From Lachnospiraceae bacterium (GTDB taxonomy: Bacteria; Bacillota; Clostridia; Lachnospirales; Lachnospiraceae): a DNA stretch of 64,000 nt. A program made the translations under genes and the position numbers. Under the pieces are notes generated by a model. The model was given only the letters and a program-made list of their open reading frames with translations, was not told the origin of the DNA and did not search any database. The DNA lies in NCBI GenBank assembly GCA_016282915.1, contig JAEELW010000148.1, positions 61 to 64,060 of the forward strand. Reading direction: 5' to 3'. Position 1 is the first letter of the stretch. Every line of letters starts with the position of its first letter. Below are positions 6,578-35,253 of the stretch, in pieces.

Positions 6578-6592
6578 AGGAGGAGCCCGGCA

Positions 6593-7962: not shown

Positions 7963-7979
7963 CACAAGGGAAATCATAA

Positions 7980-11032: not shown

Positions 11033-11073
11033 GATATTGGAATAGGCACGATCGGAAAGTATAAGCGGGAAAG

Positions 11074-11370: not shown

Positions 11371-11458
11371 ATTCAATACCGGAGTATAATGAGCGTATGC
11401 ATATTTATGCTTCATAATATCGCAGCGAAAGTCAGTTAAGGGAAAAAGGAGGATTCAG

Positions 11459-12670
11459 ATGTTCTGTCCGAAATGTGGGGAACAGATCGATGAGGGAGCT
11501 GGACTCTGCGGGAAATGCGGAAATCCGGTTCGGGAAGCTGTAGCAGTAAAGAAGTCCGGACTGTCAAAAAAGATCCTGGTATTTTCTTTTTTGGCGTTAA
11601 TGCTGGTTCTGGCCGGCGTTGTGCTTATGGTATTTCTTTTCGGAGATAATAAAGAGCGGGAATATAATAAGCAGATGGAGCTCGCAGAAAGATATCTTGA
11701 TGAGCTGGATTATGATAAAGCAATCGAAGCGTTCTATGCGGCGATCGATATCGATCCGAGCAATTCCGAGGCTTATATAGAGCTTTCAACACTGTACGAG
11801 AAGAACGAAGATTATGACAGCGCTCTCAGGATTCTGAAGGAAGCAAAGCGGAAAACAGATGGAGAGGGTATCAGAAAGCGGATAAAGCGGGTGGAGGAAA
11901 AGCTGGAACTGCTGAACGCAGAAACGGAGGAGATAGCAGAGGTCGACGAGATGCCGATTGTTGAAGAATCAGAACCGGTGGAAGCAGAAGAAGAATCGGA
12001 AGATCAGGCGGAGCCTGAAGCACAGGAACCGGCACCCGCAGGTGGGCATGAATGGAAAGCTGCATACCGGGAACTCATCATCGAAAACTATGATGAGTGG
12101 GAGCGGTCTTTTAATGAGAACGGGGCCAGCTGGGATGATTTCAGAGGAGTGGCATTTATCTATCTGGATGATGATGATATACCGGAACTGTTAACACAAT
12201 ATGGAATAACAACGGAAACGGCATATGCAACCAGAATCTACACCTATAAGCAGGGCGGACTTTCGAAATTGACGGCAGATACCTTTGAAGTGGATAATGG
12301 TCAGATACCGAATGACTGTCTTCCGATTGAGGGTTACATGGAAAAGAGCGGTATGCTGGTAACGCATTTTATTGCCGATTTTCATTTGGAGGAGATGCTG
12401 TTTCAGCTGAATGGGGATAAGCTGGAAAAACTGGCTTATTACAAAGGTGATCCCCAATATGGAAGTGAAATTGAGACGATCGACCTTACGTATCTGATAG
12501 GGGATGGCGGTATTCAGACAGAGAATGTCCTCTATGACGAATACTATACATTTGTAAAGGATTTTTGGAAGAAAGCAGACAGTTTATATGGATACGATAA
12601 TTCAAAGCAGAATTATGTGGAAGATGCAGGCTTTATGTTTAAGGAAGATGCGCTGGAATGGCTGAGATAG
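11459..12670 (+). CDS. Zinc-ribbon / single-TM / TPR protein
   Basis: MFCPKCGEQIDEGAGLCGKCG zinc ribbon, TM helix, TPR (LDYDKAIEAFYAAIDIDPSNSEAY), acidic linker, and a ~200-aa C-terminal domain. AAAGGAGG RBS. Confidence 0.8.
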   Translation: MFCPKCGEQIDEGAGLCGKCGNPVREAVAVKKSGLSKKILVFSFLALMLVLAGVVLMVFLFGDNKEREYNKQMELAERYLDELDYDKAIEAFYAAIDIDPSNSEAYIELSTLYEKNEDYDSALRILKEAKRKTDGEGIRKRIKRVEEKLELLNAETEEIAEVDEMPIVEESEPVEAEEESEDQAEPEAQEPAPAGGHEWKAAYRELIIENYDEWERSFNENGASWDDFRGVAFIYLDDDDIPELLTQYGITTETAYATRIYTYKQGGLSKLTADTFEVDNGQIPNDCLPIEGYMEKSGMLVTHFIADFHLEEMLFQLNGDKLEKLAYYKGDPQYGSEIETIDLTYLIGDGGIQTENVLYDEYYTFVKDFWKKADSLYGYDNSKQNYVEDAGFMFKEDALEWLR

Positions 12671-12955
12671 CTTTTGAACAGAAGTATTATTGGTATGAAG
12701 CGCGGAATACAGAAACGGTGATTGAGTGTGCCTTATTACAGAGACTTATGGGAATGGGCTGACGAAAAGTGTTTTTTAGGGATAAATGTCTGAGGTGCCG
12801 GGACAGAATATAAAGAGTACAGTGAAAAAATGTGTTCATGCCATGATCGCTACGCTGCCAGCAGGATAGATAAAGGGTTTTCTCGCATCAATAATATTTC
12901 TATTAGAGTCTGAAATGCCACTAAATACGAATATGGCCAGAGCTGGAGTAAAAAA

Positions 12956-14242
12956 ATGTCTGAAGAAGAAATCACGAATATAAAAAAGAGAAACAGCTTA
13001 TTGATACCAATTGTTGTAGCAGTGATTCTCTTGACTGCTGTTATAGTGATAGTCATTGTCGTTGTCAGTTCTCCGTCAAAGGGTATTGATGACAAGCTTG
13101 CGCTGGGTGATCGCTACTTGTCAGAGATGGATTACGATAAAGCGATTGCTGCTTACAGGGAAGTATTGGATATCGATACTGAGAATGTAAATGCCTATAT
13201 TGGAATAGCAAAGGCATATGATGGTCAGGGAAAAACCGAGGATGCCCTCACTATCCTGGAGGAAGGATACACGATTGTACGGGACGAAAGACTGATATCG
13301 ATGACCGAGGAATTAAGAACTAAACTTGCTAAATCAGAGGACGTAAAAGAGGACGATAATATACCGGTAAAGAAGGAGGAATCCTCTCCGACGCCACGAC
13401 AGAAGACAGAAGCAGAAATCGAAAATGAATATGAAGATTTATTTGATTTTGCAAAAGATTTTTTATATACACAGGTATCTGGGGGACCTTTATATATCAC
13501 ATTGTCAGAACGCCAAGCATTATTCTGTCCAATGATAGAGCGCATGAAACAGTTAATATCGGATCCTGAAGTGTTTTATGAGGGTTGCAGCTGGTATCAT
13601 TATGATTCTTTTATTCCGGAAAAAGCAGTCATTGGTATCAGCCGCCAAGCCTCTCTTTTATCGGATGGAATCGGCTTATATATAAGTTTTGGAAGTGTAA
13701 GTAACATACCAACCATAGATGAATGTTATGCTCTTCTGTACTATTGGCAGATGATCGTTCATTTGGAGGATGATGCATTAAAGACAAGAGAAGAATATGC
13801 GGAATTGATTCATAAACCGGAAATGTGTGAGGAAGGGTATACTTATGATGACTTTTCAGGACATACATATGTGCTGGATAAGTATGGAAGAGAGCTGTCA
13901 TGGGATAATCATGTTGGGCTAAAATCTGAAACCTTGTGGGGGGAGGGTATTTGTTTCACTTCAAAGGTTTCTTATCAGACAGGATATGTTCCAAATGTTA
14001 ACTCTGTTGATAGTTATAATTATACATACGATGCTGAGGGGCGGATTGTAAACATGGTAGTTAAAGGAAGCGCAGACCTCATAGATTCGAATATGCATTA
14101 TGAAGACAGGGAGGAAAAGAATTATCAATACGGAACCTCGGGTATAGTAATTGTACAAGAGAAAAGCACGAACTATACGAGCACAGGAACGATATCGTTA
14201 AAACTGGATCGTTTTGGCAGGGAATTGATTGACCAGAACTAA
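12956..14242 (+). CDS. Single-TM / TPR protein (partial paralogue of 11459-12670)
   Basis: N-terminal TM helix, then MDYDKAIAAYREVLDIDTENVNAYIGIAKAY TPR similar to the neighbouring gene, followed by a distinct C-terminal domain. Confidence 0.8.
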   Translation: MSEEEITNIKKRNSLLIPIVVAVILLTAVIVIVIVVVSSPSKGIDDKLALGDRYLSEMDYDKAIAAYREVLDIDTENVNAYIGIAKAYDGQGKTEDALTILEEGYTIVRDERLISMTEELRTKLAKSEDVKEDDNIPVKKEESSPTPRQKTEAEIENEYEDLFDFAKDFLYTQVSGGPLYITLSERQALFCPMIERMKQLISDPEVFYEGCSWYHYDSFIPEKAVIGISRQASLLSDGIGLYISFGSVSNIPTIDECYALLYYWQMIVHLEDDALKTREEYAELIHKPEMCEEGYTYDDFSGHTYVLDKYGRELSWDNHVGLKSETLWGEGICFTSKVSYQTGYVPNVNSVDSYNYTYDAEGRIVNMVVKGSADLIDSNMHYEDREEKNYQYGTSGIVIVQEKSTNYTSTGTISLKLDRFGRELIDQN

Positions 14243-14279
14243 AGAGTTTTTGTATTAGCAGCAACAGGAGAAGTGTAAA

Positions 14280-14546
14280 ATGCAGGAAGAGAAAGAAGAG
14301 TATGTAGATATTCAGGAAAATGTGAAGGAGAAAACGGAAGCGCACAAAACGAGTAGTTCTGGTCCGGAACAGCCGGATGCAGATAAAAAGAGCACAGAGA
14401 GCATGGAAACCGTCGTAAGTGTTGCAAAAAAGAAGAGCCCAAATAAACGGTTTCTGATGATCATCCCGGCAATACTACTCATTATTGTCGGGGGATTTCT
14501 ACTTTATTATAATTCTCCAGAACAGAAGATAAAAATATTACGATAG
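14280..14546 (+). CDS. Small single-TM protein
   Basis: 88 aa with an acidic/Lys-rich N-terminus and one TM helix (FLMIIPAILLIIVGGFLLYY). Confidence 0.5.
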   Translation: MQEEKEEYVDIQENVKEKTEAHKTSSSGPEQPDADKKSTESMETVVSVAKKKSPNKRFLMIIPAILLIIVGGFLLYYNSPEQKIKILR

Positions 14547-14723
14547 ATCCAGGGAAGTATTCATTAATGACTCTATGAGCTATGATGAGATCATGGCTTA
14601 CCTTGAATGATTGTTGATATCCTCAATGATAGTAACGATAATGCAGAGATATTGATGGCATAATCCGAAGCGCATTACATAAAGAAATGAGGAACTTACA
14701 AATCGTTGTGTGATTTGATCTGG

Positions 14724-14929
14724 TATAATTAAAGCGGATCACAAAGCGCTGATACTTATACTGTAGATGGGCGCCGGCCCTGAAAGCGGAAGAGAAAGAA
14801 AGCATTCTTGAGTTCAGATTTCCTGAAAAATGAAAGGAGATCCATTCTGCGGGAGTGATGGATTGGATCGGAAGCAGATACTTTTGACGAGTTTCTATAA
14901 GTGATCCTGCCGGAAAGTGCTTCGTGGAG
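14724..14929 (+). repeat. Copy B of the duplicated element (decayed)
   Basis: Same TATAAT and leader as copy A. The ORF start is CTG rather than ATG, and TGA replaces TGG within the aligned frame. Confidence 0.8.
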
Positions 14930-15080
14930 TGAGATATAGATAATGATCCCTGGAAAACCCATTATCAGCTTTTAAATAGTGAATATAAAGAAAAAAAGAT
15001 GGCAGAATCGCAGAAGAACTGGCGGAAGAATACGAAAACAGGATTCTGTGGAATGCAGATATCCGGAAGGATAAATAGCA

Positions 15081-15401
15081 ATGACAGATGATCAAAGAGA
15101 ATGGATCCGAGCGCGGGATGAGCTTGTCAAGGAGATACAAGGTTTGGGATTTCCGTAGGAACTGGGAATGCAGATCGCAAAGCAGCCTGGCAGTCCGAAG
15201 GCCATGAGCAGGATGATGGGATATCTTGTAAATGTAAGACCGCGGAGCGCCGAGCTGATCGTAGATGAGATGCTTGCCATCTGCAGTGATATAGACCGGT
15301 GGAGAGAAAAGAAAGCTGTCGGGTAGGCGAATGCAAAATACAACGAACTGCTGTACTACGGGCTGCCCCCCGATGAAGAAACAGACTCCGGTCAGGGTTG
15401 A
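15081..15401 (+). pseudogene. Small ORF interrupted by two in-frame TAG codons
   Basis: MTDDQREWIRARDELVKEIQGLGFP*ELGMQIAKQPGSPKAMSRMMGYLVNVRPRSAELIVDEMLAICSDIDRWREKKAVG*ANAKYNELLYYGLPPDEETDSGQG. The TAGs are at 15156-15158 and 15324-15326, and there is no frameshift. Confidence 0.55.
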
Positions 15402-15414
15402 GGATCGGATATGC

Positions 15415-15443
15415 TTTGCAATATACGCGGTGCTGGGTTATAA
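15415..15443 (+). promoter_or_regulatory. Sigma-A-type promoter
   Basis: TTGCAA (15415-15420), 17-nt spacer, TATAAT (15438-15443), followed by a GC-rich hairpin in the 5' leader. Confidence 0.5.
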
Positions 15444-15542
15444 TGTGTGGGGCAGATCCCGCAGCCCGGCACCTTTTGTATGCGGGGCTGCTCCTGACAG
15501 GCAGTTTGCGGTATCACAGAGGATTTGGAGAAAATATCCGCT

Positions 15543-16364
15543 ATGCAGGCAGAGATCCCCGCGATAAATTGCATTACGGACAAACGGCTTGATATGGTGT
15601 CCAAGTACCTGTATCTGAAGGAATACAGCGAAAAGGGCAGCCTGAAAGCGTCTTCTTTCATCTATAAGGTATATAAAAGCCAGATCGATGCACTCACCAA
15701 CGGGACCTATACCGAGCCGAATACGCCGTCAAAGAACAGCATCGCCAGATTTACCGGCGCTTTCGAGAAGCTGTTTGACAGCATAAGGGAAAACGGTTTT
15801 CAATGCGACGGGGAGCTGCTTACCTTTGGGAAGGATCATGTCCCGGGGGACGGTGCGCACAGACTGTCGGCGGCGGCCTTTCTGGGCCTGAAGGTATCGG
15901 TCGATGAGCGGGAGGGAAACGGCGTACTCTGTGATATCCCCCTGCTGGAGAGGCAGTATATACGGCGGCAGTATATCAATTTCCTGATCGCGAATCTTTT
16001 GCGGCTCCGGGACAGCTACCGGCTGCTGCGATACGACGCCGGCGGCGGGAAAGCGGTATGCAAAAGGCTCCGCAAAGGCCCGGTGAAGAAGGATCTTGTA
16101 TATCTGACCGCACTGGGGAAGGAAGTCATCGGCGTGATCCGTGCGGAGCGGGAGATCCCGCAGGGTTTTACGGAGATCAAAGCCGGAACGGAAGAGTATG
16201 CGGAGATCCTTTCAAGACTGGAATATGCGAAAGATGGTCCGCTGACCGCCTTTCTTCGTGAATTTATGAGGGCAACGGACCGGAAGCTGTTTCGCATCAA
16301 ACCCTTTTTCAGGAAACATTTTCCGGGGATATACGGATTTTTACGGAAGAAAAAAAGAGGATAG
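15543..16364 (+). CDS. ParB/sulfiredoxin-fold (ParB-like nuclease domain) protein
   Basis: HVPGDGAHRLSAAAFLG resembles the ParB/Srx DGxHR-type motif. The start is uncertain (TTG 15525, ATG 15543 or ATG 15594). Confidence 0.6.
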   Translation: MQAEIPAINCITDKRLDMVSKYLYLKEYSEKGSLKASSFIYKVYKSQIDALTNGTYTEPNTPSKNSIARFTGAFEKLFDSIRENGFQCDGELLTFGKDHVPGDGAHRLSAAAFLGLKVSVDEREGNGVLCDIPLLERQYIRRQYINFLIANLLRLRDSYRLLRYDAGGGKAVCKRLRKGPVKKDLVYLTALGKEVIGVIRAEREIPQGFTEIKAGTEEYAEILSRLEYAKDGPLTAFLREFMRATDRKLFRIKPFFRKHFPGIYGFLRKKKRG

Positions 16365-22387: not shown

Positions 22388-23887
22388 ATGGAAGACAATC
22401 AGAACACGGAAAACAGGGACAAAGCATATTGCAGCATGTGCGGAAGGTCGGAGGAGACGGCAGGAAAGCTGATCCATCTCCCCATGAATATGTTCCTGTG
22501 CCCGGAATGCATGGACAAGACTTCGAACATGATCGAATCCCAGATGGGAAACATGAACGGAGCCGGTGCCATCGACTGGGGCCGGGTGATGGGGATGTAC
22601 GGAAGCGGGAAAACGGACGAAATGCCGAAGAGCGATGCCGCTACGGCGCTGAAGGAAAACGAAGGCGACGGAAAAAACAAAGAGACCGCAGGTGAAGGAG
22701 AGAAACAGGAGGAGAAACCCAAGCCGAAGGTCAGTTTCCTCAATCTTGCGGATCTGCCTTTTGATTTCGGTTTCGGAGGCCGGCAGCGTGTCAAAAAACG
22801 GGACAAAAAAGACTACAAGCCTCTGCTGGAGCTGAAGGATATCCCCGCACCGCACAAGATCAAGGAAAAGCTGGATGAGTATGTGGTAGGGCAGGAGCAG
22901 GCCAAGAAAGTCATGAGCGTGGCGGTTTATAACCACTACAAGCGTGTGGCTACCCATACCATGGACGAGATCGAGATCGAGAAGTCCAATATGCTGATGC
23001 TGGGACCTACCGGCTGCGGTAAGACCTATCTGGTTCAGACCCTGGCACGTATCCTGCATGTGCCGCTGGCCATCACCGATGCGACCACGCTGACGGAAGC
23101 GGGCTATATCGGCGACGATATCGAGAGCGTGCTGAGTAAGCTTCTTTCAGCAGCGGATAATGATGTGGATAAGGCCGAACAGGGGATCGTTTATATCGAT
23201 GAGATCGACAAGATCGCAAAGAAACAGAACACGAATTCCAGGGATGTGAGCGGCGAATCGGTCCAGCAGGGATTACTGAAGCTGCTGGAAGGTTCGGATA
23301 TCGAGGTGCCGGTAGGCGCCTCCTCCAAGAACGCCATGGTGCCGACCACGACGATCAATACCAGAAATATCCTCTTTATCTGCGGGGGAGCATTCCCGGG
23401 GATCGAGGAGATCATAAAGCGGCGTCTCAACAAGACTTCCGGGATCGGCTTCCATGCGGAGGTAAAGAACCCGGAGGAGAAGGATCTGACGATCCTGCAG
23501 GAAGTGGAGACCGAGGATATACGGAAGTTCGGTATGATCCCGGAATTTGTCGGCCGACTGCCGATGGTATTTGCCCTGGAAGGGCTGGATAAGGATATGA
23601 TGGTGCGTATCCTGAAGGAGCCCCGGAATGCCATCCTGAAACAGTATCAGAAGCTTCTGGAGCTGGATGAGGTACGTCTGAATTTTACCGACGATGCCCT
23701 GGAGCTGATCGCCGAGAAGGCGCTGAAGAAAGAAACCGGTGCCAGAGCGCTGCGTTCGATCCTGGATGAGCACATGATCGACATCATGTACGAGATCCCG
23801 AAGGATCAGAATATCGGTACCGTGACCATAACGAAGGAGTATCTGGAAGGTACCGGAGGACCCCAGATCGAGCTGAGACAGGGATAA
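22388..23887 (+). CDS. clpX: ATP-dependent Clp protease ATP-binding subunit ClpX (extended ZBD-AAA+ linker)
   Basis: C4 zinc finger CSMC-x21-CPEC, GPTGCGKT, pore-1 GYIG, IVYIDEIDK, IGF loop (GIGFHA), EFVGRLP, GARALRSI. Confidence 0.9.
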   Translation: MEDNQNTENRDKAYCSMCGRSEETAGKLIHLPMNMFLCPECMDKTSNMIESQMGNMNGAGAIDWGRVMGMYGSGKTDEMPKSDAATALKENEGDGKNKETAGEGEKQEEKPKPKVSFLNLADLPFDFGFGGRQRVKKRDKKDYKPLLELKDIPAPHKIKEKLDEYVVGQEQAKKVMSVAVYNHYKRVATHTMDEIEIEKSNMLMLGPTGCGKTYLVQTLARILHVPLAITDATTLTEAGYIGDDIESVLSKLLSAADNDVDKAEQGIVYIDEIDKIAKKQNTNSRDVSGESVQQGLLKLLEGSDIEVPVGASSKNAMVPTTTINTRNILFICGGAFPGIEEIIKRRLNKTSGIGFHAEVKNPEEKDLTILQEVETEDIRKFGMIPEFVGRLPMVFALEGLDKDMMVRILKEPRNAILKQYQKLLELDEVRLNFTDDALELIAEKALKKETGARALRSILDEHMIDIMYEIPKDQNIGTVTITKEYLEGTGGPQIELRQG

Positions 23888-23945: not shown

Positions 23946-23980
23946 GAAAAAAGACTGTCGGTTTCGGCAGTCTTTTTTGT
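23946..23980. terminator. Bidirectional-looking intrinsic terminator after clpX
   Basis: aaaaaagactgtcggtttcggcagtctttttt is an 8-bp stem flanked by an A-tract and a T-tract. Confidence 0.75.
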
Positions 23981-24236
23981 GTGAAATGACGTCAGGGCGG
24001 CAGGGGTTATTTCGTCATCCGGCCGATCGGGGGTGATCCATGAGAAGGTCGTCAGAGAGATTTCGTAACGCAGAGACAATGGCTAAAACGTGATTTAGCT
24101 GCATGCCTGCGCTTTTTTCTGTACCGGATATCTGCCGGCTCCGGGTGTATCAAAGACCGGAATCGGGACCGGAGGACGGCGAAATTGCGGTCCGGATCAG
24201 GGGCTTCCGAAGGATTATTCTGCCCCCGGAGTGCCA

Positions 24237-24269
24237 GGATCCGGAGAGAGGGTTCCGGGATTTTTTTTC
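24237..24269 (+). terminator. Terminator-like hairpin plus T8 tract in the intergenic region
   Basis: ggatccggagagagggttccggga followed by tttttttt. It lies within a block of nested inverted repeats. Confidence 0.4.
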
Positions 24270-24447
24270 ATCAGAGACTCCTGATGGAGTCTTTCTCTCT
24301 CCGGGATCGATTCTTCCGGGATCCGCTTTTTTGGTGTGAGGCATAGCTGCCCGGTCTTGTTTTGTCTTCTTCCCTTCCTGTTTTTTCAGAGAGATTTTCA
24401 GCCGGAGCTGAAGTAAAATGCAAAAAAAGAAAGATCGGGAAATTGAG

Positions 24448-24837
24448 TTATGTAAATAATTAAAACCAAATGGCATTATGTAAACAAATGCTGATTGGCT
24501 CCCGGAATACAAGAGAAATGGGAGCATCCTTATGTTGGAGGAATTATAAACAAAAAGGCGACTTTGGAAATATAATCTAAAATATATAAAAATAAAAACT
24601 ATTGTAATTTTGCGCCGGGTCAATCTCGAAAAGAGCACTGTTTACATAAGTGCAGCAAAAACAGTTTATAAATTATGTTAAGGAAAAAGAAGCTCCGAAA
24701 ATTATGTAAACAAGAGAAAATATGGTGTGAATCAGATTATGTCAACATAGAAAAAACAATCATCAGTGTACATAAATTATTATTATCGGATCTTATGTAG
24801 ATCAAGCGGGGAAAGTTGTGGAGGATTGGTTTACGTA
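24448..24837. repeat. Array of ~10 TTATGTAAAC-like motifs in both orientations
   Basis: Forward copies start at 24448, 24476, 24530 (partial), 24673, 24702, 24737 and 24793. Reverse copies (GTTTACATAA-like) start at 24640, 24766 and 24829. Spacing is mostly ~27-36 bp. Confidence 0.65.
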
Positions 24838-25702
24838 GTATTTGCCGGGAAGGAGTGTTTCGCACGGCTTTTCTGATCAAAGCAGAAGGGGAAAAGGGCG
24901 CAGATACATTTAAAAATACAGCCTGTGATACTAAAAGATAAAACAATTATAAAGAGGAGATAAAGCCTTTAGTCAATTGCTGTCCTATCCGGTCAGATGC
25001 AGAAAAGCGATATGACGGAGTCTCGGATCGACAGGGAAAAGACGAAATGTTAAATCATATATTAGCAAGGGGTGATCTGGAAAAATCGGGCTACATAAAC
25101 TTCTTTTGTTAAGAGGTTTACCATAAGAAATCAATGATCATTTCGGATGCCGATCGGGGCAGATCTGGATCTGTCGCAGCGACCGGGATGCGGCCGGAGG
25201 AGTGACAGAAAAGCATAGATGTGATCTATGAAATACAGCACAAAAATCTGCGCAGGATCCTTATGAAAATACGATGTATGCGTTCTATATTGAAAGACAC
25301 AAAAAGGGCGGGAGTAAAATGTCCAAACGGCCACGTGATCTGATACTGGAGTGATATAATTAATAGAACAGGAAAAGCGAGCCGGCAGATGCCGGTATAT
25401 GATATAGTGATGATAAGATATATATCACAGACTGTCAGAAGGAGTACAACAAGTACTGTATATATCACATATGGATAATAAGTGCGAAACGATGTATATC
25501 AGATATGATAAAAATGCGCCGCCGGAGGAGAGCGCGTAAAGCCGGTGATATATTCTACTGTATATAGAATGAAGAGCGCAGGAACGTTGACGTCTGCATT
25601 TGGTTATATCATGATTTGATGATGCTGGCGCAGGAAAAAATCTGTCCGGCAGTACGGTGACATATGTAAGCAATAAAGCATAACAAATATAACAAAAAAC
25701 AC

Positions 25703-25731
25703 TGGACAAAAAATGGCTGATAAGATATAAT
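25703..25731 (+). promoter_or_regulatory. Sigma-A-type promoter for the surface-protein gene
   Basis: TGGACA (25703-25708), 17-nt spacer, TATAAT (25726-25731), ~80 nt upstream of the GTG at 25813. Confidence 0.55.
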
Positions 25732-25812
25732 GCATATAACACAAATATTGCAGATACAACGAGTGATAAATGCTTTCGGCTGTCCTCCGGTCTTCAACAG
25801 GAGGGAGAAGAA

Positions 25813-28800
25813 GTGAGCAGAAAGAAAACAGTCAAAAAATGTATGTGGTGGCTTTTGATCTTTGTTTTGATCGCGGAAGCCATACCGATCCCCGCTGATG
25901 CGGGACTACTGGTGCAGTCGGATGAAAAACTAACGCAGGATCTGTATCATGAACATGGCGGCAGCGATTCAGCCTGCTATGGAAGGGTTTTTAAGGAATG
26001 CGGCGGTTTTTTCTTCCAGATCGCGGAAGGCTCGGAGTTTTACTGCTGCAGTAAATGCCGGCTTTACATGCGTGGTAAACCGGAGAACATGATCCATAGC
26101 GGAGAGTATACGGAAGGGTTGGTCTGTGATGAGGATCTGATCGGCAGTTTCTATATCGAGAGGAGCGAAAGAGCGGATGGCGTCTTTCTGATGGCCGGGA
26201 TCGAAGGCGGCTCCGGGCTGATCAGTGAATATGAGATCAGCTGGAACGAGGAAGGAGCTTATACCGATGGTCTGACAAGCGTGATGCCGGTTACTGTACC
26301 GGGGACTTATCATGCACATCTGCGTTATCATGACGGGAAGGCCGGTGCGTGGAGAGAGGCCTCCCTGGACTATACGGATCTGAGTGTTCCCTGCAAGGTC
26401 AGTTTTTACAGTGAAGGGAATCTGCTGGGTGAAGTGGAGATGCCGTACGGAAGCAGTTTCGCCGCAATAGAGCTGCCTGAGAGATATGGCTATGATTTCG
26501 GAGGCTTTTATGCCGGTGCAGGACGTTATTATGATGAAGCAGGGCAGCCGGCAGAGCTGGGTGTGCAGCCGTTGGAGACCGCGTTTCTGGAACTGACGGC
26601 GGACTGGTCCGCGAAAAGATTTCCTTTCCGCTACGGGCCCGATGCGGACGGCGACGGTCTGGGTGACGGGGAAGCGGTACTGATCTATGACCAGGCGCCG
26701 CCCGCGATCGCCCTTCCCGAAGCGGAAGAACGCCCGGGTTTTGAACTGGACGGCTATTATATCGGGGAGAAAAAGCTCTATGACGCGCAGGGAGCAGCGC
26801 TCGGTGTGTGGACAGAGGTTCCGGCAGAACTTCCGCTTCGCCTGGAAGAGCGCTGGAAAGAACGCTTTTATACCCTGCATTATGACCTGGATCATGACGG
26901 GGTAAAAGAGGCATCGGCGATCCTCCGGTACGGAGAAAGCCTGCCGCAGCTGCAGAGACCCGGAGATATCCCGGGCATGGTCTTTGACGGATATTTTTAT
27001 GATGAGCGGAAGATCTTTGATGCCGATGGCAGGCCTGCGGCGGCACTGCCGGAACTGTTTGAGCTGGGCAGTATCTCACTGAAGGATGAGTGGCATATCA
27101 AGCATTTTGTGATCTCTTACGGCCCGGATGAGGACGGTGACGGAGAGCCCGACTTCAGTATAGAGCTTGATTACGGGGAGACTCCGCCCGCAGTTGAAAT
27201 GCCGGTCCCGGCACCGCGGAAAGGCTATGAATTTGACGGCTATGCGGTAGACGGGGAAAAGATCTATGACCGTGACGGCAGGCCTGCCGGAGCCTGGAGA
27301 CCGGATATGGAAGAGGGGAGTTATGAGCTCGAACCCTTGTGGAAAGCGAAAGAATACAGGCTGTATTACGGACCGGACAGTGACGGAGACGGCATACCGG
27401 ATCTGATACTGATCCTGCGTTATGACAGCGTTCCGCCTGCGATATCCCTTCCGGAGCCGCAGGCACGTCCGGGCTATGTTTTTGACGGTTATTATGTAGG
27501 CGACCGGCAGCTGTTCGGTCCCGACGGACAGCCGACCGGGCCATGGAATGCGGATCCTGAAGGAGATGGGAAGCTGATCCTGAAGGAACGTTTCAGGCAG
27601 GTAAGCATCACGATCTTTTTCGGACCGGACCTGAACGGAGACGGAAGACCGGATCAGTATCGCACGATACGTTACGGAGATCCGATGCCGCTGCTGGATC
27701 TGGGAGAGGTGAAGGAGAGGAAGGGTTATCGCTTCCTTGGGTATTATGTCGGTGAGACGATGCTTTATGATGCCATGGGTGTGCCTGCAACGGAAAACTG
27801 TACTTTCACGACACAGGCCGGAAGCTATATCCTGAGTGCAAAATGGGAAGCAAAGAGCTATGCCCTTCGTTACGGGACGGATGAGGACGGAGACGGAGTG
27901 CCGGATCGGGAATTGCAGGTGACATACGGACAGCCGTATCAGGCCGTCGAAGTTCCAAAGCTGGAAGAAGGGCACATCTTTGACGGGTACTATCTTGACG
28001 GAGAGATGGTCTATGACCCCGAGGGAAAACCGAAGGAGCTTTGGATCTGGGACAGCGAAACGGACGTTCTGGAACTGAAGAGCCATATGCTGCCGCCGAA
28101 CAAGCCTGAAGACGATAAAGAAAAAGGGAAGGGTGATAACGGCGGCCGGGGCGCGAACAACGGCAGCGACAGCGGAAGCGATGATCAGGACGGAGCCGGT
28201 GAAGCTCAGGGTGATGAAGGAGAAGCCGGGACAGAAAACGGAGACGGAGCCGACGACGGCAGCGATCCGGGCAGCAGCGTGAGCGGCAATAGCGTCAGTG
28301 AAAACACTCCGGAAGATCGGCGGAAGAAAGGAAACGGTGGTGGAAAAAAAGTGCTCGATACGGCAGGGACAGAAGAAGGCGGACTGACAGAGGAAGCGGA
28401 TCCGGGGAATGATGAGCTCACCGACCGGCCTGTGATCGGAGAAGAGGATATTCAGGAGGAAGAAGAGCAGAGTGAAGCACCGTCTGCAGAAGCCGGGGAG
28501 AAAAAAGAAGAGCCGGAGTCCGGGGACGAAGATCTCCTTCCGGCCCTGTCGGAAGCAGAAGAAAAGCCCAATGAGAAAAGGGATTCCGGGGCGATGCCGA
28601 TCATCAAAAAGGCAGCAGCGGTAGGTGCGGTAACGGTAGGCAGTCTGGGAGGGATCCTCGGGATCTATGCGGGACTGGTCTATCTGCTGGCCATGGCGGA
28701 AGTGGAGACCATATGCCCGGACGGAAGAAAGAAACGTCTCGGCAGACTGGCGATCCATTCCGAAAAGGGAAAAGCCTTTCTGATCCGGCTGCCCAGAGAA

Positions 28801-28947
28801 ATGCTGGAGCAGTGTGAGACAGACCGGATCTGTCTGCGTATCCCGGCATTGTTTGCCATACGATACCGCAAGCGCAGTATTGTGATACAGACAAGGATCA
28901 GGATACAGGAGAAACAGATCGCCCGGGAGATCCACGTGGAGATCTGA
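25813..28947 (+). CDS. Large type-I membrane-anchored surface protein with Listeria/Bacteroides-type (Flg_new-like) repeats
   Basis: GGAGGGAG RBS and GTG start. Signal peptide, Cys-rich N-terminal region, 7 repeats with G(Y/F)xFxGYY..YDxxGxP plus DxDGDGxPD, an acidic Gly/Asp/Glu linker, one TM helix, and an 82-aa basic C-terminal tail. Confidence 0.85.
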   Translation: MSRKKTVKKCMWWLLIFVLIAEAIPIPADAGLLVQSDEKLTQDLYHEHGGSDSACYGRVFKECGGFFFQIAEGSEFYCCSKCRLYMRGKPENMIHSGEYTEGLVCDEDLIGSFYIERSERADGVFLMAGIEGGSGLISEYEISWNEEGAYTDGLTSVMPVTVPGTYHAHLRYHDGKAGAWREASLDYTDLSVPCKVSFYSEGNLLGEVEMPYGSSFAAIELPERYGYDFGGFYAGAGRYYDEAGQPAELGVQPLETAFLELTADWSAKRFPFRYGPDADGDGLGDGEAVLIYDQAPPAIALPEAEERPGFELDGYYIGEKKLYDAQGAALGVWTEVPAELPLRLEERWKERFYTLHYDLDHDGVKEASAILRYGESLPQLQRPGDIPGMVFDGYFYDERKIFDADGRPAAALPELFELGSISLKDEWHIKHFVISYGPDEDGDGEPDFSIELDYGETPPAVEMPVPAPRKGYEFDGYAVDGEKIYDRDGRPAGAWRPDMEEGSYELEPLWKAKEYRLYYGPDSDGDGIPDLILILRYDSVPPAISLPEPQARPGYVFDGYYVGDRQLFGPDGQPTGPWNADPEGDGKLILKERFRQVSITIFFGPDLNGDGRPDQYRTIRYGDPMPLLDLGEVKERKGYRFLGYYVGETMLYDAMGVPATENCTFTTQAGSYILSAKWEAKSYALRYGTDEDGDGVPDRELQVTYGQPYQAVEVPKLEEGHIFDGYYLDGEMVYDPEGKPKELWIWDSETDVLELKSHMLPPNKPEDDKEKGKGDNGGRGANNGSDSGSDDQDGAGEAQGDEGEAGTENGDGADDGSDPGSSVSGNSVSENTPEDRRKKGNGGGKKVLDTAGTEEGGLTEEADPGNDELTDRPVIGEEDIQEEEEQSEAPSAEAGEKKEEPESGDEDLLPALSEAEEKPNEKRDSGAMPIIKKAAAVGAVTVGSLGGILGIYAGLVYLLAMAEVETICPDGRKKRLGRLAIHSEKGKAFLIRLPREMLEQCETDRICLRIPALFAIRYRKRSIVIQTRIRIQEKQIAREIHVEI
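26476..28080 (+). repeat. Seven divergent tandem coding repeats (~83 aa, ~250 bp)
   Basis: Anchors are GYDFGGFY, GFELDGYY, GMVFDGYF, GYEFDGYA, GYVFDGYY, GYRFLGYY and GHIFDGYY. Each is followed by YD/FGxDGxP, and most are preceded by YGPDxDGDGxPD. Confidence 0.75.
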
Positions 28948-29108
28948 AAGGAAAGCAGAACACAGTACAGGAGCACGGCCGGCCTGTGAAGCCGGACGGC
29001 TCCCGGAAAAAGGGGCTGTCGCAGCGGCCGATCGGATCAGATCGGTCATTGCGGCAGTCCTTTCCTTATAACTTGCAAGAAGCGGGAAAAAAGGGTATTA
29101 TAAAGCTT

Positions 29109-30662
29109 ATGATCAATATATTTGAAGAGATGGAAAAAAGGCAGATCCGGATAAGGACCAATGTCTGGCATACTGCGTCGCGGGACACCACGGCAGTGTC
29201 GGAGTATATCCTTGCGCGCCTGATGCTTGTCTGCGATGAAGTGAAGAGCGCGGACGTGGAGGCTCTGGGATATCTGGAGATGCTTTATTTCCGTGTCATG
29301 GATGATAAGCATATCCTTCCGGAGCTGCGTTCGCTGCTTTCGATCCTGGAAAAGCTGGAAGAGGATCTGGATTATTCCACCGAGATCTTTGGGGAAAGGG
29401 CTGCCTATATCCTGGATTTCCTGGAGGCGGATACCCTGCGTCATGCGACCGATAAGAGCAGCAACGATAAAGAACGGCGCGTTCTGGGCAGGATCCTCCG
29501 CATGCGCCTGAAGTATCTCCAGGAGAATGGGCGGGAGGAACGGAGGGAACTGTTCCGTCCGATGGATATCAAGGCCTATCTGGACCAGTTCATCATCGGG
29601 CAGGAGGATGCCAAGCTTGCGGTGAGCACCGCCGTCTACGGCCACGGGAAACGCGTCCGGCATCCGGATCTGCGTTTTGCACCGGACGTGGTACTTCTGA
29701 TCGGGCCTTCCGGCTGCGGCAAGACCGAGATCATGCGCCGCATCCGGGAGATCACGGACTATCCCATGGTCTTTACCGACGTGTCTTCCTTGGGGGCGAG
29801 CCAGTATAGGGGGCGTCATAAGGAAGATATCCTGATCGAGCTGTATGAGGCTGCCGGCAGGAAAAAGAACCTTGCGGAGAAAGGCATCGTTTTCATGGAC
29901 GAGTTTGATAAACTCCTTCTGCCTGCGATCTCGGAACGCGGGGTCAATATCCATGACGATGTGCAGTCGCAGCTGCTCACGATGCTGGAAGGCAGCGAGG
30001 TAGAACTCAAGACCGACGGACAGACGCTGCTTCTGGATACCTCCCATATCCTCTTTGTACTGGCGGGGGCGTTCCAGGGGATCGATGAGTGCATACGCAG
30101 TGATAAAAAGGAAAAGAGTACCCTGCCGGCAGGTATGGGTTTTCAGTCGGTGCTGGATAAGGAGATGAACCTGGAGTATATCCGGGACAACATCAACCAT
30201 GAAGTTCTGATGAAATACGGGATGAAACGGGAGCTGGCGGGGCGCATCAGCAGCATCGCCGTGCTGGAGAAACTGGACCGGGAAGCGATGCTCCGTATCC
30301 TTACGGAGCCGAAGGACAGCCTGATCCGCCGTTATGAGAACGAACTGAAGCTTTCCGGAAGTGCGGAACTGATCTTTACCGATGGGGCACTCCGGGCGAT
30401 CGCGGATGAGGCGTTAAAGACGCCTGTAGGTGCAAGAGCGCTCCAGACGATCCTGGGGCGGGTACTGCGGGGCGTTCTTTTCCGGGCGCCGGAGGAAAAA
30501 GGGCTGCGGCGCGTTGTAATCAACGAAGATGTGGTGAAGGAAGGAGCCGAGCCGCTTTATGAGACGGATGAGCTGACGCGCTCACTGGGCGAGCTGACAC
30601 GCCTGCCCGAGAGCGGAGCGGGCAGCGATACGGGAAAACAGGCAGATGCGGGACATTTTTAA
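29109..30662 (+). CDS. ClpX-like AAA+ ATPase lacking the zinc-binding domain (paralogue A)
   Basis: GPSGCGKT, IVFMDEFDK, ELAGRIS, GARALQTI, and GMGF at the IGF-loop position. The pore-1 position reads SQYRG. The ~190-aa N-domain is helical and Cys-poor. Start is uncertain (GTG 28986 or ATG 29109). Confidence 0.8.
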   Translation: MINIFEEMEKRQIRIRTNVWHTASRDTTAVSEYILARLMLVCDEVKSADVEALGYLEMLYFRVMDDKHILPELRSLLSILEKLEEDLDYSTEIFGERAAYILDFLEADTLRHATDKSSNDKERRVLGRILRMRLKYLQENGREERRELFRPMDIKAYLDQFIIGQEDAKLAVSTAVYGHGKRVRHPDLRFAPDVVLLIGPSGCGKTEIMRRIREITDYPMVFTDVSSLGASQYRGRHKEDILIELYEAAGRKKNLAEKGIVFMDEFDKLLLPAISERGVNIHDDVQSQLLTMLEGSEVELKTDGQTLLLDTSHILFVLAGAFQGIDECIRSDKKEKSTLPAGMGFQSVLDKEMNLEYIRDNINHEVLMKYGMKRELAGRISSIAVLEKLDREAMLRILTEPKDSLIRRYENELKLSGSAELIFTDGALRAIADEALKTPVGARALQTILGRVLRGVLFRAPEEKGLRRVVINEDVVKEGAEPLYETDELTRSLGELTRLPESGAGSDTGKQADAGHF

Positions 30663-32199
30663 CTGTAAAAACGATGCGGAGTTTTCGATCCGTATCGAAG
30701 AGAGGATGGGAGCCTATCTGGCCGGGGACGGATATTTTTCCGCTCCGGACCGGGTTTATGATTATCTGCGCATTCTGCTTCATTATATCTTTCTGGTGCG
30801 TCCGAAGAGCGAGCATACGATCGACAGTGTGCTAAAACTCCTTGGAGCCAGTTATAAGGAAAAAGGCTACCGGACGCCGTTCTGGGCCATTATCCGGGAG
30901 GCTTCCCTGCAATATCCGACGGATGAGCTCTTTTACCGGGCGCGCAGTGTCGAACAGGAGATCACGAACGAGGATATCGACGAGATCTTCGACTTTCTGG
31001 AGTCGGAACTGCTGCTGGAAGGCGGTACGGAGCAGACGGAAGAGGAACTGGGGCTGCTGGCGGTGTGCCGCGTACGTTACCAGCAGAGCCGTGTGCGGGA
31101 TATACGCATGAGGGGCGGCGGAAAGAAAAGAGATGAGGAAAGAGAGCCGGCCTTTTTCCCGGCCTGCCGCAGTTTTGTTGAGCAGTATACGCCGCGGCGC
31201 ATCCGCGAATACCTGGACCGTTTCGTGCTGGGCCAGGACGAGAGTAAGGATGTGCTGAGTGCTGCGGTGTATAATCATTTCCTGCGCATCCTGCATCCGG
31301 AGGAGAAGCTGATCAAGACCAATGTGCTGATGGTCGGACCGACGGGCTGCGGGAAAACGGAGCTGATCCGCCGCATCGCCGATCTGGTGCCGGTGCCAGT
31401 GGTGATCAGTGATTTTTCCGGGATCGTAGCCACGCCCTGGAAGGGGAGAAATAAGGAAGAATCCCTTCTGAACCTTTATCTGAAGGCCGGGAAGGATGTG
31501 GAGCTGACCGAGTGCGGGATCGTATTCTGTGATGAATTTGACAAGATCATCCCGTCCAAAGCCTATTCGCGCGGAGGAGACATCAATCAGGAACTGCAGG
31601 GGCAGCTGCTGGGAATGTTTGAGGGGACCGATATCGATGTGCCTATGCCGGATAAGAGCGGCGGGCATGAGAGCATACTCATGAACACCTCCAATATCCT
31701 TTTCATCTGTGCGGGTGCCTTTGAGGGGCTGGAACGTATCGTGAAAAAAGACTATGTCCGCGGAGGTATCGGCTTCAGCAGCCAGACGGCCGAAGGAAAG
31801 GATTTTGAGCTCACCGGTGATAAACTGAAGACCGAGCATCTCATGGAATACGGGATGAAACCGGAACTGGCGGGGAGGCTTTCGGCTGTGACGGTGCTGA
31901 AGAAGCTGGACCGCGATATGCTGAAGCGTGTGCTCACCGAACCGGAGGAATCGATACTATCGCGCTATGAGCTGGAGCTGCGTGTGGATGAGGGCGCGCG
32001 GCTGAATGTGACGGATGAGGCACTGGATGTGATCATCGACCGTGTGATGGAGATGAGCATCGGTGCAAGAGGGCTGAATGCCATTGTGCATGAGATCCTG
32101 GCGCAGACGCTTTATGAACTGCCGTCCATGAACGGCGTTCAGGAAGTGATGATCACCGGAGCAGCCGCGAGGATGGAAGAAAAACCGGTATACATATAG
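30646..32199 (+). CDS. ClpX-like AAA+ ATPase lacking the zinc-binding domain (paralogue B)
   Basis: GPTGCGKT, IVFCDEFDK, ELAGRLS, GARGLNAI, GIGF loop. The pore-1 position reads TPWKG. The N-domain is different again. It overlaps paralogue A by 17 nt. Confidence 0.85.
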   Translation: MRDIFNCKNDAEFSIRIEERMGAYLAGDGYFSAPDRVYDYLRILLHYIFLVRPKSEHTIDSVLKLLGASYKEKGYRTPFWAIIREASLQYPTDELFYRARSVEQEITNEDIDEIFDFLESELLLEGGTEQTEEELGLLAVCRVRYQQSRVRDIRMRGGGKKRDEEREPAFFPACRSFVEQYTPRRIREYLDRFVLGQDESKDVLSAAVYNHFLRILHPEEKLIKTNVLMVGPTGCGKTELIRRIADLVPVPVVISDFSGIVATPWKGRNKEESLLNLYLKAGKDVELTECGIVFCDEFDKIIPSKAYSRGGDINQELQGQLLGMFEGTDIDVPMPDKSGGHESILMNTSNILFICAGAFEGLERIVKKDYVRGGIGFSSQTAEGKDFELTGDKLKTEHLMEYGMKPELAGRLSAVTVLKKLDRDMLKRVLTEPEESILSRYELELRVDEGARLNVTDEALDVIIDRVMEMSIGARGLNAIVHEILAQTLYELPSMNGVQEVMITGAAARMEEKPVYI

Positions 32200-32215: not shown

Positions 32216-33727
32216 ATGGCTACGAAGAATAAGAAGAAAAAAAAGAAGAAGAATAAACAGAAGTTTTCGAAGCTTCAGTTTGCGGTGCTGATACGTACCG
32301 TCCTGCCGATGCTCGTGATGGGCGTGGCGATCATCGTGGCCGGTACGATGAGTGCGGCCGCTTCGCTGCAGCAGGAAGTGTACCGTTCCCTCGGAGCCGC
32401 AGGCAGTGCCGTGGCTTCCTCGCTTGATGAGATGTATCCGGGGGATTATCAGCTGATCAAGGGAGACGGCATTGCCTACCTTATCAAAGGCAGGAAAGAA
32501 CTGACCGGTGATTTTTCATTTATTGACAGGATCGCAAAGGACAGCGGGATGGAGGTTTCGCTGATCTACGGGGACGGCCGTTTTGTGACGACGCTGAAGG
32601 ATGAAAACGGGGATCGTTATATCGGGAGCGGCGTGCATCCCAATATCGTGCGGGAGATGTCGGAAAAACAGAAGACTCTGAACTATCGCAGCGAGATCGG
32701 CCGGGGGCAGATCTTTTATGTGGCCTATGTTCCGCTTTATAATTCCGACGGAAGTCAGGTGGGAATGATCGGAACGGCCGTCAGTGAGGCAATGGTGAGG
32801 TCGGAAGTGACGGCAGCAGCCCGCCCGATCTGGATCATCACGATACTCGGTATGCTGGTGGCAAGCTTTATCAGTATACGTTATACCAACAGGATCATAT
32901 CCGCGATCCGGAGCATGCATAAATTTCTTTCCCGTATGGTCATGGGCCGGCTCAATAATGAGATGGATGAAAGTGTGCTGAAACGCCGCGATGAGATCGG
33001 AGCGACCGGCGAAAGCATCGTGCGCATGCAGAATGCGGTGCGCGTGCTGGTGGAATGCGATCCGCTGACCACGCTTTATAACCGCCGCAGCGGCGATGCC
33101 AAACTGAAAGCCCTTCTGCGCAAGGCGGCGCAGACCGGAGCGCCTTTCTGCGTGGCACTCGGAGATATCGATTTCTTTAAAAAAGTCAACGATACCTATG
33201 GACATGATGCCGGCGATGCGGTGCTGAAATTTGTTTCCGCAGCAATGAAGGATCTGGTGAACGGACGCGGCTTTGCCGTGCGCTGGGGCGGTGAGGAATT
33301 CTTCCTTGTGTTTGAAGAGATGGGACTGATCGAGGTGGCTGCGGCGATCGAGAATTTCCTGGAAGCCATACGCGCTTCTGTCGTGCATCATGGAGGGCAG
33401 TCGATACGCTTTACCATGTCGGTCGGTCTGGTGGAAGGTGACCCGACCCGGGATGCGCAGGAGATGACAAAGGAAGCGGATGAAAAGCTTTATTATGCGA
33501 AGGAACATGGCCGTGACCAGCTGGTGGTAACGCCGGGTGAGGAACAGCCTTCCTATCGTGACCTTTTGAAACAGGAGCAGGAAAGCGACAGAAATGAGAC
33601 GCTGATCACGTTCTCGGATGAATTCCTGGATTCGGAAAATCTGATGCAGCTCCTGTCTGAAAATGCATTGAAAGAGATGGAAGAACAGGATGGGAAAGAC
33701 AGAAAAGACGGAGACGAAAACGGCTGA
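32216..33727 (+). CDS. Diguanylate cyclase with extracytoplasmic Cache-like sensor domain
   Basis: Poly-Lys N-terminus, two TM helices flanking a ~150-aa domain, then GGDEF with an intact RWGGEEF motif. Confidence 0.9.
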   Translation: MATKNKKKKKKKNKQKFSKLQFAVLIRTVLPMLVMGVAIIVAGTMSAAASLQQEVYRSLGAAGSAVASSLDEMYPGDYQLIKGDGIAYLIKGRKELTGDFSFIDRIAKDSGMEVSLIYGDGRFVTTLKDENGDRYIGSGVHPNIVREMSEKQKTLNYRSEIGRGQIFYVAYVPLYNSDGSQVGMIGTAVSEAMVRSEVTAAARPIWIITILGMLVASFISIRYTNRIISAIRSMHKFLSRMVMGRLNNEMDESVLKRRDEIGATGESIVRMQNAVRVLVECDPLTTLYNRRSGDAKLKALLRKAAQTGAPFCVALGDIDFFKKVNDTYGHDAGDAVLKFVSAAMKDLVNGRGFAVRWGGEEFFLVFEEMGLIEVAAAIENFLEAIRASVVHHGGQSIRFTMSVGLVEGDPTRDAQEMTKEADEKLYYAKEHGRDQLVVTPGEEQPSYRDLLKQEQESDRNETLITFSDEFLDSENLMQLLSENALKEMEEQDGKDRKDGDENG

Positions 33728-35174: not shown

Positions 35175-35253
35175 GCGGTCGTGGCGGAATGGCAGACGCG
35201 CCGGATTTAGGTTCCGGTCCGAAAGGGTGAGGGTTCAAGTCCCTTCGGCCGCA
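35175..35253 (+). tRNA. tRNA-Leu (anticodon UAG)
   Basis: Folded by hand. Acceptor stem GCGGUCG/CGGCCGC, D-arm GCGGAAUGGCAGACGC, anticodon loop UUUAGGU, long variable arm, T-loop UUCAAGU, discriminator A. CCA is not encoded. Confidence 0.9.

Follow-up and report, generated by a model that had tools for sequence, protein, structure and literature searches.

A 64,000-nucleotide (nt) stretch of Lachnospiraceae DNA (contig JAEELW010000148.1 of assembly GCA_016282915.1; hereafter the window) encodes on its plus strand two ClpX-like AAA+ proteins without a zinc finger, A (29109-30662) and B (30646-32199), directly followed by a membrane-bound diguanylate cyclase (32216-33727) and preceded by a membrane-anchored surface protein, Surf (25813-28947). 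By comparison of gene orders, the linkage of A, B and the cyclase in one conserved unit is real and non-random, and so is the linkage of the cytoplasmic tail of Surf to this unit. Judged from the sequences, the unit looks like an undescribed, specialised protein-turnover module. We tentatively favor the idea, giving it somewhat less than an even chance, that A and B may form a mixed unfoldase that docks on ClpP and degrades the cytoplasmic part of the cyclase and/or of Surf.

Conservation and distribution of the A-B-cyclase unit

One genome per species of the Genome Taxonomy Database (about 185,000 species representatives) was scanned with the N-terminal domain of A as the query, and the domain was found in 26 species. 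All of them are metagenome-assembled genomes of rumen or gut Lachnospiraceae, except for the cultured Lachnospiraceae bacterium XPB1003, the one cultured strain with the A-B-cyclase unit (locus L032). In a word-indexed homology search, too, the only assemblies with members of the family were those of Lachnospiraceae, in which the proteins carry the annotation "AAA family ATPase." Together with eight further loci, the 26 species loci gave a set of 34, whose open reading frames (ORFs) were classified against the proteins of the window. The order A, B, and a cyclase with sCache_3_3 and GGDEF domains was present in 34/34 loci (26/26 species). In most loci the reading frames of A and B either share 4, 17, or 23 nt or directly adjoin each other, and the two genes are never separated within the clade; the gap between B and the cyclase is mostly 1 to 62 nt. 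The overlap is 17 nt in the window (30646-30662), and the ORF coordinates agree with the description in an earlier note on this DNA of an overlapping ClpX-family pair on the plus strand downstream of Surf.

The wider neighborhood is conserved as well. In most loci, genes for HtrA and a zinc-finger ClpX lie 2 to 6 kb upstream and a MatE gene lies downstream, and the whole GlmS-HtrA-ClpX-...-MatE neighborhood is maintained. This is what would be expected if the neighbors of A and B merely reflected inherited gene order, with A and B being general-purpose or stress-related extra ClpX paralogues like ClpX3 of Myxococcus xanthus. Consistent with such an explanation, the 26 species all fall within a single group at family level, the rumen Lachnospiraceae, distant relatives of A and B lack these neighbors, and a ClpX paralogue that has neither the zinc-binding domain nor the RKH motif is documented to play a role in stress (PMC11423568). 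However, gene order elsewhere in the neighborhood was disrupted several times (variable upstream genes, a 12.7-kb island inserted in one case, and loss of MatE), and yet the spacing between B and the cyclase stays at a few tens of nucleotides behind one conserved promoter at A identities down to ~55%. Furthermore, the cyclase has a conserved extension specific to the clade, and the Surf tail domain was found nowhere else in the data searched. We consider inherited order without function an improbable explanation.

That the ATPase pair is mobile, derived from a phage, or part of anti-phage defense is extremely unlikely. Generic AAA matches to the PADLOC models DolB and IetA are weak (≤35 bits), phrog_4339, a family of ClpX-like phage proteins, matches the AAA+ core, and one distant singleton lies near IS605 OrfB and nuclease or SMC-like genes. 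However, the PADLOC matches span the P-loop region only (best, DolB with 35 bits), the unit has no partner nuclease or effector, and its chromosomal position between housekeeping genes is stable in 34/34 loci. In addition, no relative of the N-terminal domain was found in 2.9 million viral contigs.

Among the distant relatives, locus L035 has an A/B-like pair at positions 4352 to 8203 (701 and 573 amino acids [aa]), whose A-like member has a far longer N-terminal region. Downstream of the pair are genes for several proteins without a Pfam match, for a Sel1-repeat protein, and for a double-AAA protein containing AAA_lid_6. This neighborhood may be a different module built on an A/B-like unfoldase pair.

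Conserved core and altered recognition elements of A and B

On the basis of their conserved motifs, A and B are catalytically intact ClpX-like paralogues of 517 aa each. For gene A, a start codon at 28986 had been proposed earlier. All of the 80-odd A orthologues begin to align at residue 42 of that 558-aa ORF, and the predicted promoter ends 7 nt before the corresponding ATG; gene A therefore extends from 29109 to 30662, and the GTG at 28986 was ruled out as its start. With this start, A is separated from Surf by 161 nt.

Both proteins have Pfam matches to AAA_2, AAA, and ClpB_D2-small. Their top sequence matches in the PDB are solved ClpX structures (E values of 8e-57 and 2e-61, respectively), with ~35 to 40% identity across the whole core. 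In NCBIfam, A scored 251 and 227 bits and B scored 280 and 251 bits with the ClpX equivalogs NF003745 and TIGR00382, under the cut-offs of 359 and 371 bits. Neither protein belongs to the HslU equivalog, with fragmented matches of 138 and 120 bits and a cut-off of 362.

To compare the core motifs, E. coli ClpX was aligned with ~77 A-type and 24 B-type proteins. Walker A (GP[ST]GCGKT; 29703-29726 in A and 31336-31359 in B), Walker B (DEFD; 29889-29912 and 31522-31545), the arginine finger (ELAGR; 30228-30251 and 31861-31884), and sensor-2 (GAR; 30426-30449 and 32059-32082) are kept, the latter two including the equivalents of R307 and R370 of ClpX. Thus, the motifs that the earlier note had listed for the pair, an IGF-like tripeptide included, are present across ~100 family members, and none of the inactivating changes in the ATPase core that it had considered possible was seen in the alignment.

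What differs are the elements that govern specificity. The pore-1 loop, GYVG in ClpX, is changed to SQ[YF]RG in A and TPW[KR]G in B. The aromatic residue and the final glycine are kept, and the first glycine and the hydrophobic residue are replaced, the latter by arginine or lysine. Hence, the loop has indeed changed, as had been noted, but it has not been lost, and "rewired" overstates the difference. The flanks turned from acidic to basic, resulting in three to four basic residues per loop compared to none in canonical ClpX. In the module-bearing loci, the loops are constant within each paralogue and distinct between the two, with ASQ[YF]RGRHK in A (ASQYRGRHK in the window, 29796-29822) and ATPW[KR]GRNK in B (ATPWKGRNK, 31429-31455). 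The RKH loop, which serves in ssrA-tag recognition, is deleted in A; in B it is shortened and has no RKH. A Pfam scan found no match to zf-C4_ClpX (PF06689) in either protein, and the N termini are helical and have no cysteine cluster. In this respect A and B differ, as the earlier note had stated, from the ClpX encoded at 22388, whose zinc finger scored 36 bits and which reached 556 and 501 bits with NF003745 and TIGR00382. Since A and B score below the cut-offs and have neither the zinc finger nor GYVG nor RKH, we regard them as a new subfamily in the ClpX lineage and not as ClpX.

Two further observations concern ClpX proteins outside the A/B family. The ClpX at 22388-23887 is itself atypical, with 499 aa, a Glu/Lys-rich insert of ~90 aa that separates the zinc finger from the AAA+ core, and SSKNAMVP at the place of the RKH motif. 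Its gene is not beside clpP and adjoins that of an HtrA-type protease, a pairing kept in most related loci. A group of 430- to 436-aa proteins (P0100 to P0114), named ClpX in Selenomonas, has no zinc-finger match in Pfam and keeps a GFVG pore loop and RKH; zinc-finger-less relatives of ClpX are therefore not confined to the A/B family.

A ClpP-docking-type tripeptide is found in both proteins of the window, MGF in A (inside 30129-30149) and IGF in B (inside 31762-31782). The pattern [ILMV]G[FY] is kept in nearly all module-bearing copies of A and B while the neighboring residues drift, which indicates constraint on a ClpP-docking element. This argues against the idea that the proteins work without ClpP, either as effectors whose N-terminal domains sense cyclic di-GMP (c-di-GMP) or as a ring that partly unfolds or disassembles the cyclase without degrading it. 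It is known that members of the ClpX family can act without ClpP, as in the disassembly of MuA and the activation of ALA synthase by mitochondrial ClpX. The strict linkage to a cyclase with an intact active site, the lack of a nearby clpP in the window and 38 loci, and an N-terminal domain that matches no domain of known function would also fit such a role. However, A, B, and the Surf tail show no recognizable site for c-di-GMP binding, neither a PilZ domain nor an I-site-like RxxD motif. Altogether, a ClpP-independent remodeler or c-di-GMP effector appears quite unlikely to us.

The N-terminal domain

In place of the zinc-binding domain, A and B have what is, by sequence searches and a structure model, a previously unseen helical domain. 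It comprises ~147 aa in A (29109-29549) and ~179 aa in B (30646-31182). An AlphaFold2 model of the domain of A, based on an alignment of 33 sequences, is a seven-helix bundle with a predicted local distance difference test score (pLDDT) of 91 and a predicted template modeling score of 0.85. Profile-profile comparisons with hhalign revealed that the domains of A and B are homologous, with probabilities of 85% (E = 7e-6) and 93% (E = 4e-7) over ~115 columns. Of the two "different ~190-aa helical N-domains" claimed earlier, the helical nature is thus supported by the model of A, but the domains are smaller and are related to each other.

No relative was found in the PDB, neither by fold (Foldseek; best E value of 1.2, TM-score of ~0.3) nor by profile searches with the sequence. 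The domain was also considered as a known adaptor or substrate-binding domain, and this was rejected, since there was no match in Pfam, NCBIfam, the PDB profiles, or the Foldseek search of the PDB. The check with profile and Foldseek searches that the earlier note had proposed thus pointed to no known adaptor or substrate family. A HMMER scan of 1.84 billion cluster representatives gave only 14 proteins with an E value of <0.001, and the full-length ones among them are all ClpX-like proteins of 490 to 560 aa.

The extreme N termini are conserved, with M-I-N-I-F in A orthologues (29109-29123) and M-x-x-[IV]-F in B orthologues (30646-30660). Both domains begin with M-x-x-[IV]-F, and such conservation is unusual at the very start of a protein, which suggests a functional role of the first five residues.

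The diguanylate cyclase

The third and invariant member of the unit is the diguanylate cyclase of 503 aa, which the earlier note had not mentioned. It matches the GGDEF domain (PF00990; E = 2e-36) over profile positions 3 to 161 of 161 and sCache_3_3 with an E value of 7e-19. The GGEEF active-site motif (33287-33301) is intact in 23/23 cyclases, that is, in the window and 22 orthologues. With a GG[DE]EF motif and a full-length domain match, the sequence has the features expected of an active diguanylate cyclase.

Beyond the GGDEF domain, the cyclase continues with a C-terminal extension (residues 435 to 503; 33518-33724), a candidate site for recognition or engagement. Such an extension of 63 to 186 aa with a net acidic charge was found in 23/23 sequences, including those from loci without Surf, and its net charge in the window is −13. 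Within it, a helix-like motif, TLITFSDEFLDSENLMQLLSENALKEME (33599-33682), recurs in orthologues. At its other end, the cyclase of the window starts with a poly-lysine run, MATKNKKKKKKKNKQK (32216-32275); orthologues begin at a conserved GKLQxAVL segment. The poly-lysine N terminus was considered as a conserved tag and rejected because it is not conserved in orthologues.

Transcription of the unit

A predicted promoter of the sigma-70 type, TTGCAA-17-TATTAT (29073-29101, plus strand), lies directly upstream of A. The pattern TTG(A/C)AA-17-TAAAAT is present at this position in 30/30 loci, 28 of which were found with a regular expression, the other two having TTGCAA-17-TAGAAT; in random 170-nt windows the pattern occurs with a frequency of 4.7%. 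In ~15 loci, including the window (29096-29111), the −10 element is only 6 to 9 nt away from the ATG of A and there is no Shine-Dalgarno sequence, and therefore, a leaderless mRNA is predicted for A. The remaining loci have a leader of 29 to 85 nt with a Shine-Dalgarno-like sequence before A.

Because of this conserved promoter directly upstream of A, the A-B-cyclase genes are, as read from the DNA, most likely their own transcription unit, with readthrough from Surf being possible as well. The earlier note had seen no terminator between Surf and A and had envisaged cotranscription. The first point is correct, as there is no terminator-like site in the gap of the window (28948-29108). However, several orthologues have a GC-rich hairpin followed by a T-run just after the stop codon of Surf, and this, together with the promoter, makes separate transcription probable, which the earlier note had listed among the findings that would refute its proposal.

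The surface protein Surf and its tail

Surf is predicted to be a type I membrane-anchored surface protein of 1,044 aa. A signal peptide is followed by a Cys/His-rich N-terminal module (residues 44 to 65; 25942-26007), Flg_new-like repeats with a weak match to Flg_new, an acidic stalk with a net charge of −34 (28084-28593), a single C-terminal transmembrane helix (28612-28698), and, on the cytoplasmic side, a basic 82-aa tail domain that includes the motifs DGxKKRLG, EKG, and CETD (28699-28944). This bears out the earlier description of a membrane-anchored protein with an 82-aa tail, and the same plan, from the signal peptide to a tail of ~82 aa, is common to the Surf homologues. The Cys/His-rich module at the start of the ectodomain, HEH...C[YW]...CGG...C..C, is conserved in the window and in orthologues; it has no Pfam match and may be metal-binding or disulfide-bonded.

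An alignment of 22 orthologues was used to assess the conservation of the tail. Its net charge is +8 in the window and ranges from 0 to +11 in orthologues. None of 20 tails had a Pfam match at an E value of ≤1, and the PDB contains no fold relative. The tail was considered as a PilZ domain and rejected, since there was no Pfam or fold match and the motifs RxxxR and [DN]xSxxG are absent from the alignment.

A Surf homologue with the transmembrane helix and the conserved tail is encoded directly upstream of A in 20/26 species. Conversely, with the tail as the anchor, 10 loci were found in metagenome contigs of the Joint Genome Institute; A was immediately downstream in 9/9 contigs that were long enough, and B and the cyclase came next wherever the contig continued. 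In the data searched, the tail was thus seen only beside A-B or, once, 12.7 kb away. In that case (L013/L038; JAFZOW010000129.1), a 12.7-kb carbohydrate-utilization island with genes for an FGGY kinase, GH43, a fucose isomerase, GH3, a two-component system, and a sugar-binding lipoprotein lies between Surf, which follows GlmS-HtrA-ClpX, and A, and both Surf and the promoter of A are intact. In the six species in which Surf does not adjoin A, an unrelated gene takes its place, coding for a YqeY-like protein, a sugar-binding lipoprotein, or, on the opposite strand, a carbamate kinase; in two additional metagenome loci (L003 and L004), the gene upstream of A encodes an ion-channel protein. Word-indexed searches were of little use for the distribution of Surf: they returned three proteins for a 109-aa tail query and six for full-length Surf, as candidates from the index were scarce or buried in low-complexity sequence.

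These data qualify the link to Surf that the earlier note had made. Surf does adjoin A in 20/26 species, but it is not beside A in 6/26 and is absent from the neighborhood in 5/26, and the invariant partner is the cyclase. As the A-B-cyclase unit occurs without Surf and the Surf tail was never found without A-B, it is suggested that the cyclase belongs to the core and that Surf is a dependent accessory.

The distribution bears directly on whether A and B could be a device dedicated to Surf, cotranscribed with it and extracting or degrading it via the 82-aa tail, with the cyclase as an incidental neighbor. The position of Surf in 20/26 species, the restriction of the tail to A-B (9/9 informative metagenome contigs), the match of a basic tail to acidic N-terminal domains, and the gap without a terminator-like site in the window speak for it. 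On the other hand, the unit has no Surf nearby in five species and has it 12.7 kb away in one, and the cyclase is present in 26/26 species and has its own conserved extension. Furthermore, A has its own conserved and often leaderless promoter, a terminator-like hairpin follows Surf in several orthologues, and Surf has a long regulatory region of its own. A device for Surf alone is, in our view, unlikely.

A model for the A-B module

The favored model would work as follows. A and B, which would have arisen by tandem duplication of a ClpX-like AAA+ unfoldase within the clade, would be produced together with the cyclase from their own conserved, often leaderless promoter. They would assemble into a mixed hexamer, which is a reasonable inference from their adjacency, the overlapping or abutting reading frames, and the paralogue-specific pore loops. 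The hexamer would then dock via the [ILMV]-G-[FY] loops on a ClpP encoded elsewhere in the genome and would unfold and degrade the cytoplasmically exposed part of one or both of the neighboring membrane proteins. One possible client is the cyclase, the invariant partner, whose acidic C-terminal extension would match the basic pore; another is Surf, the frequent partner, whose basic 82-aa tail would match the acidic N-terminal domains. Indeed, the charges in the window are complementary (−6 and −8 for the N-terminal domains of A and B, +8 for the tail, and −13 for the extension, along with basic pore loops). The output may be a posttranslational coupling of c-di-GMP synthesis to the display or turnover of Surf.

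Several points weigh against this model. No clpP was found in the window by tblastn, as the earlier note had stated, and none lies within ~10 kb in the window or any of 38 loci. The IGF-like loops are degenerate in distant family members, including distant B-like relatives. These distant relatives (~40 to 45% identity) are encoded singly or in pairs in unrelated neighborhoods and have no cyclase or Surf next to them; this restricts the specific module to one clade, and synteny inherited within a single clade could inflate the apparent linkage to the cyclase and Surf. Surf is missing from the neighborhood in 5/26 species. The AlphaFold2 model of the tail, a small beta-rich domain, is of moderate confidence (pLDDT of 69 from a seven-sequence alignment). 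The match of charges fits the model and is suggestive, without being proof, and the function of the module as a whole is deduced from gene linkage and motifs.

A bolder version of the model would have an obligate heterohexameric machine of the ClpX family that sits at the membrane, has a basic pore and a new recognition domain, and, under the control of the Cache-type cyclase, extracts or destroys Surf via its tail or destroys the cyclase. We hold this to be rather improbable. If true, it would be a counterpart, on the cytoplasmic side and in Gram-positive bacteria, of the Lap-type control of adhesins by c-di-GMP and the first natural heteromeric ClpX.

Comparison with known systems

Literature searches turned up no account of a ClpX-like pair in tandem, the N-terminal domain of A and B, or an operon of ClpX and a cyclase, in agreement with the earlier note, whose author knew of no system with this architecture. 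ClpX is a well-understood homohexamer that obtains its specificity from the zinc-binding domain, the RKH loops, and separate adaptors. Canonical ClpX (NF003745/TIGR00382) and A and B have in common the HCLR-clade AAA+ module (AAA_2 and ClpB_D2-small), Walker A and B, the arginine finger, sensor-2, the aromatic pore-1 residue, and the IGF-type tripeptide. In contrast to canonical ClpX, A and B have a helical domain of 147 to 179 aa instead of the C4 zinc-binding domain, QYRG or PWKG with basic flanks in the pore, a deleted or shortened RKH loop, and scores below the cut-offs; they are two divergent tandem paralogues, and their genes are not beside clpP. The elements that confer specificity would thus have been swapped for a new N-terminal domain, a missing RKH loop, and a basic pore, and the motor would have been duplicated into two coupled subunits. 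If true, this is a natural experiment in the retargeting of an AAA+ unfoldase.

Obligate heterohexameric AAA+ unfoldases are well known, for example the proteasomal Rpt1-6, the mitochondrial m-AAA protease Yta10/Yta12, and the cyanobacterial FtsH2/FtsH3, but we know of no heterohexamer in the bacterial ClpX family. Like these, A and B are coencoded paralogues with distinct pore loops for which one common ring is proposed; unlike these, their heterooligomer is deduced from gene coupling only. The nearest described case is ClpX3 of M. xanthus, an extra ClpX paralogue without the zinc-binding domain and RKH that is encoded away from clpP and has a role in stress; multiple ClpXs are rare (PMC11423568). 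It resembles A and B in having neither the zinc-binding domain nor RKH and in being encoded away from clpP, but, compared by description, it is a single isolated gene, has no replacement N-terminal domain, and is not reported to be linked to a cyclase or surface protein.

The combination of a diguanylate cyclase with a protease that controls a specific client also has precedents. In Pseudomonas, the Lap system (LapA/LapG/LapD/GcbC) employs a periplasmic cysteine protease and a GGDEF-EAL receptor, and its client is a repeat-rich surface adhesin. In Caulobacter, the PopA/CpdR/RcdA-ClpXP hierarchy delivers proteins in a c-di-GMP-dependent manner to the housekeeping ClpXP via adaptors (e.g., PMC8020655). 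The A-B module would differ from both by having its specialization in the unfoldase itself. In Pfam scans, its four proteins (Surf, A, B, and the cyclase) had no PopA-, LapD-, or LapG-like domain and no EAL or HAMP domain. A different parallel is the degradation of the cytoplasmic part of a single-pass membrane protein by a ClpX-type machine at the end of a cascade, as for RseA and RsgI. Regulated intramembrane proteolysis of RsgI in Clostridium thermocellum is reported to be finished by ClpXP (PMC12203970). An HtrA-family protease and ClpX are encoded a few kilobases upstream of A-B, which would fit this scheme. However, the cytoplasmic domain is N-terminal in the anti-sigma factors RseA and RsgI, whereas Surf has its N terminus outside and its C terminus inside, and the unit encodes neither a sigma factor nor a site-2 protease. 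These functional analogues (Caulobacter, Lap, and regulated intramembrane proteolysis) share none of the components of the module. If our reading is true, the module may connect second-messenger signaling by a new route to the turnover of surface proteins in Gram-positive gut bacteria. With 26 of ~185,000 species representatives the clade is narrow, and its direct biological reach is therefore limited; strain XPB1003 is in culture and carries the A-B-cyclase genes, and therefore, genetics and biochemistry are feasible.

Other features of the window

Surf is preceded by an AT-rich noncoding stretch of 1.85 kb (23950-25800; GC content of 0.42 compared to ~0.55), which separates it from a terminator hairpin of clpX (23947-23978). 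The best promoter candidate for Surf is TGGACA-17-TATAAT (25703-25731, plus strand), assigned by 11/12 matches to the consensus only. A c-di-GMP or other riboswitch in this leader was considered and rejected, as there was no Rfam match at the gathering threshold or at an E value of ≤1. The stretch contains boxes of the sequence TTATGTAAACA at 24449, 24477, 24639, 24703, 24738, and 25663, three of them exact and three with one mismatch, and none with zero or one mismatch was found elsewhere in the window. The cluster at 24449-24837, which holds five of the six boxes, has no assigned strand, and is peripheral to the module, is a candidate regulator-binding array. In the equivalent region of at least seven other loci (L009, L015, L016, L018, L019, L022, and L033), TATGTAAAC boxes recur three to seven times with at most one mismatch. 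Going by this recurrence of sequence, the cluster is probably an array of binding sites for a regulator of Surf.

Positions 1 to 16000 of the window have a GC content of 0.39 to 0.45 compared to 0.50 to 0.57 in the remainder, which suggests a compositionally distinct region or island. At the other side of the module, a tRNA gene (35175-35253) directly follows MatE; no other Rfam match in the window reached the gathering threshold.

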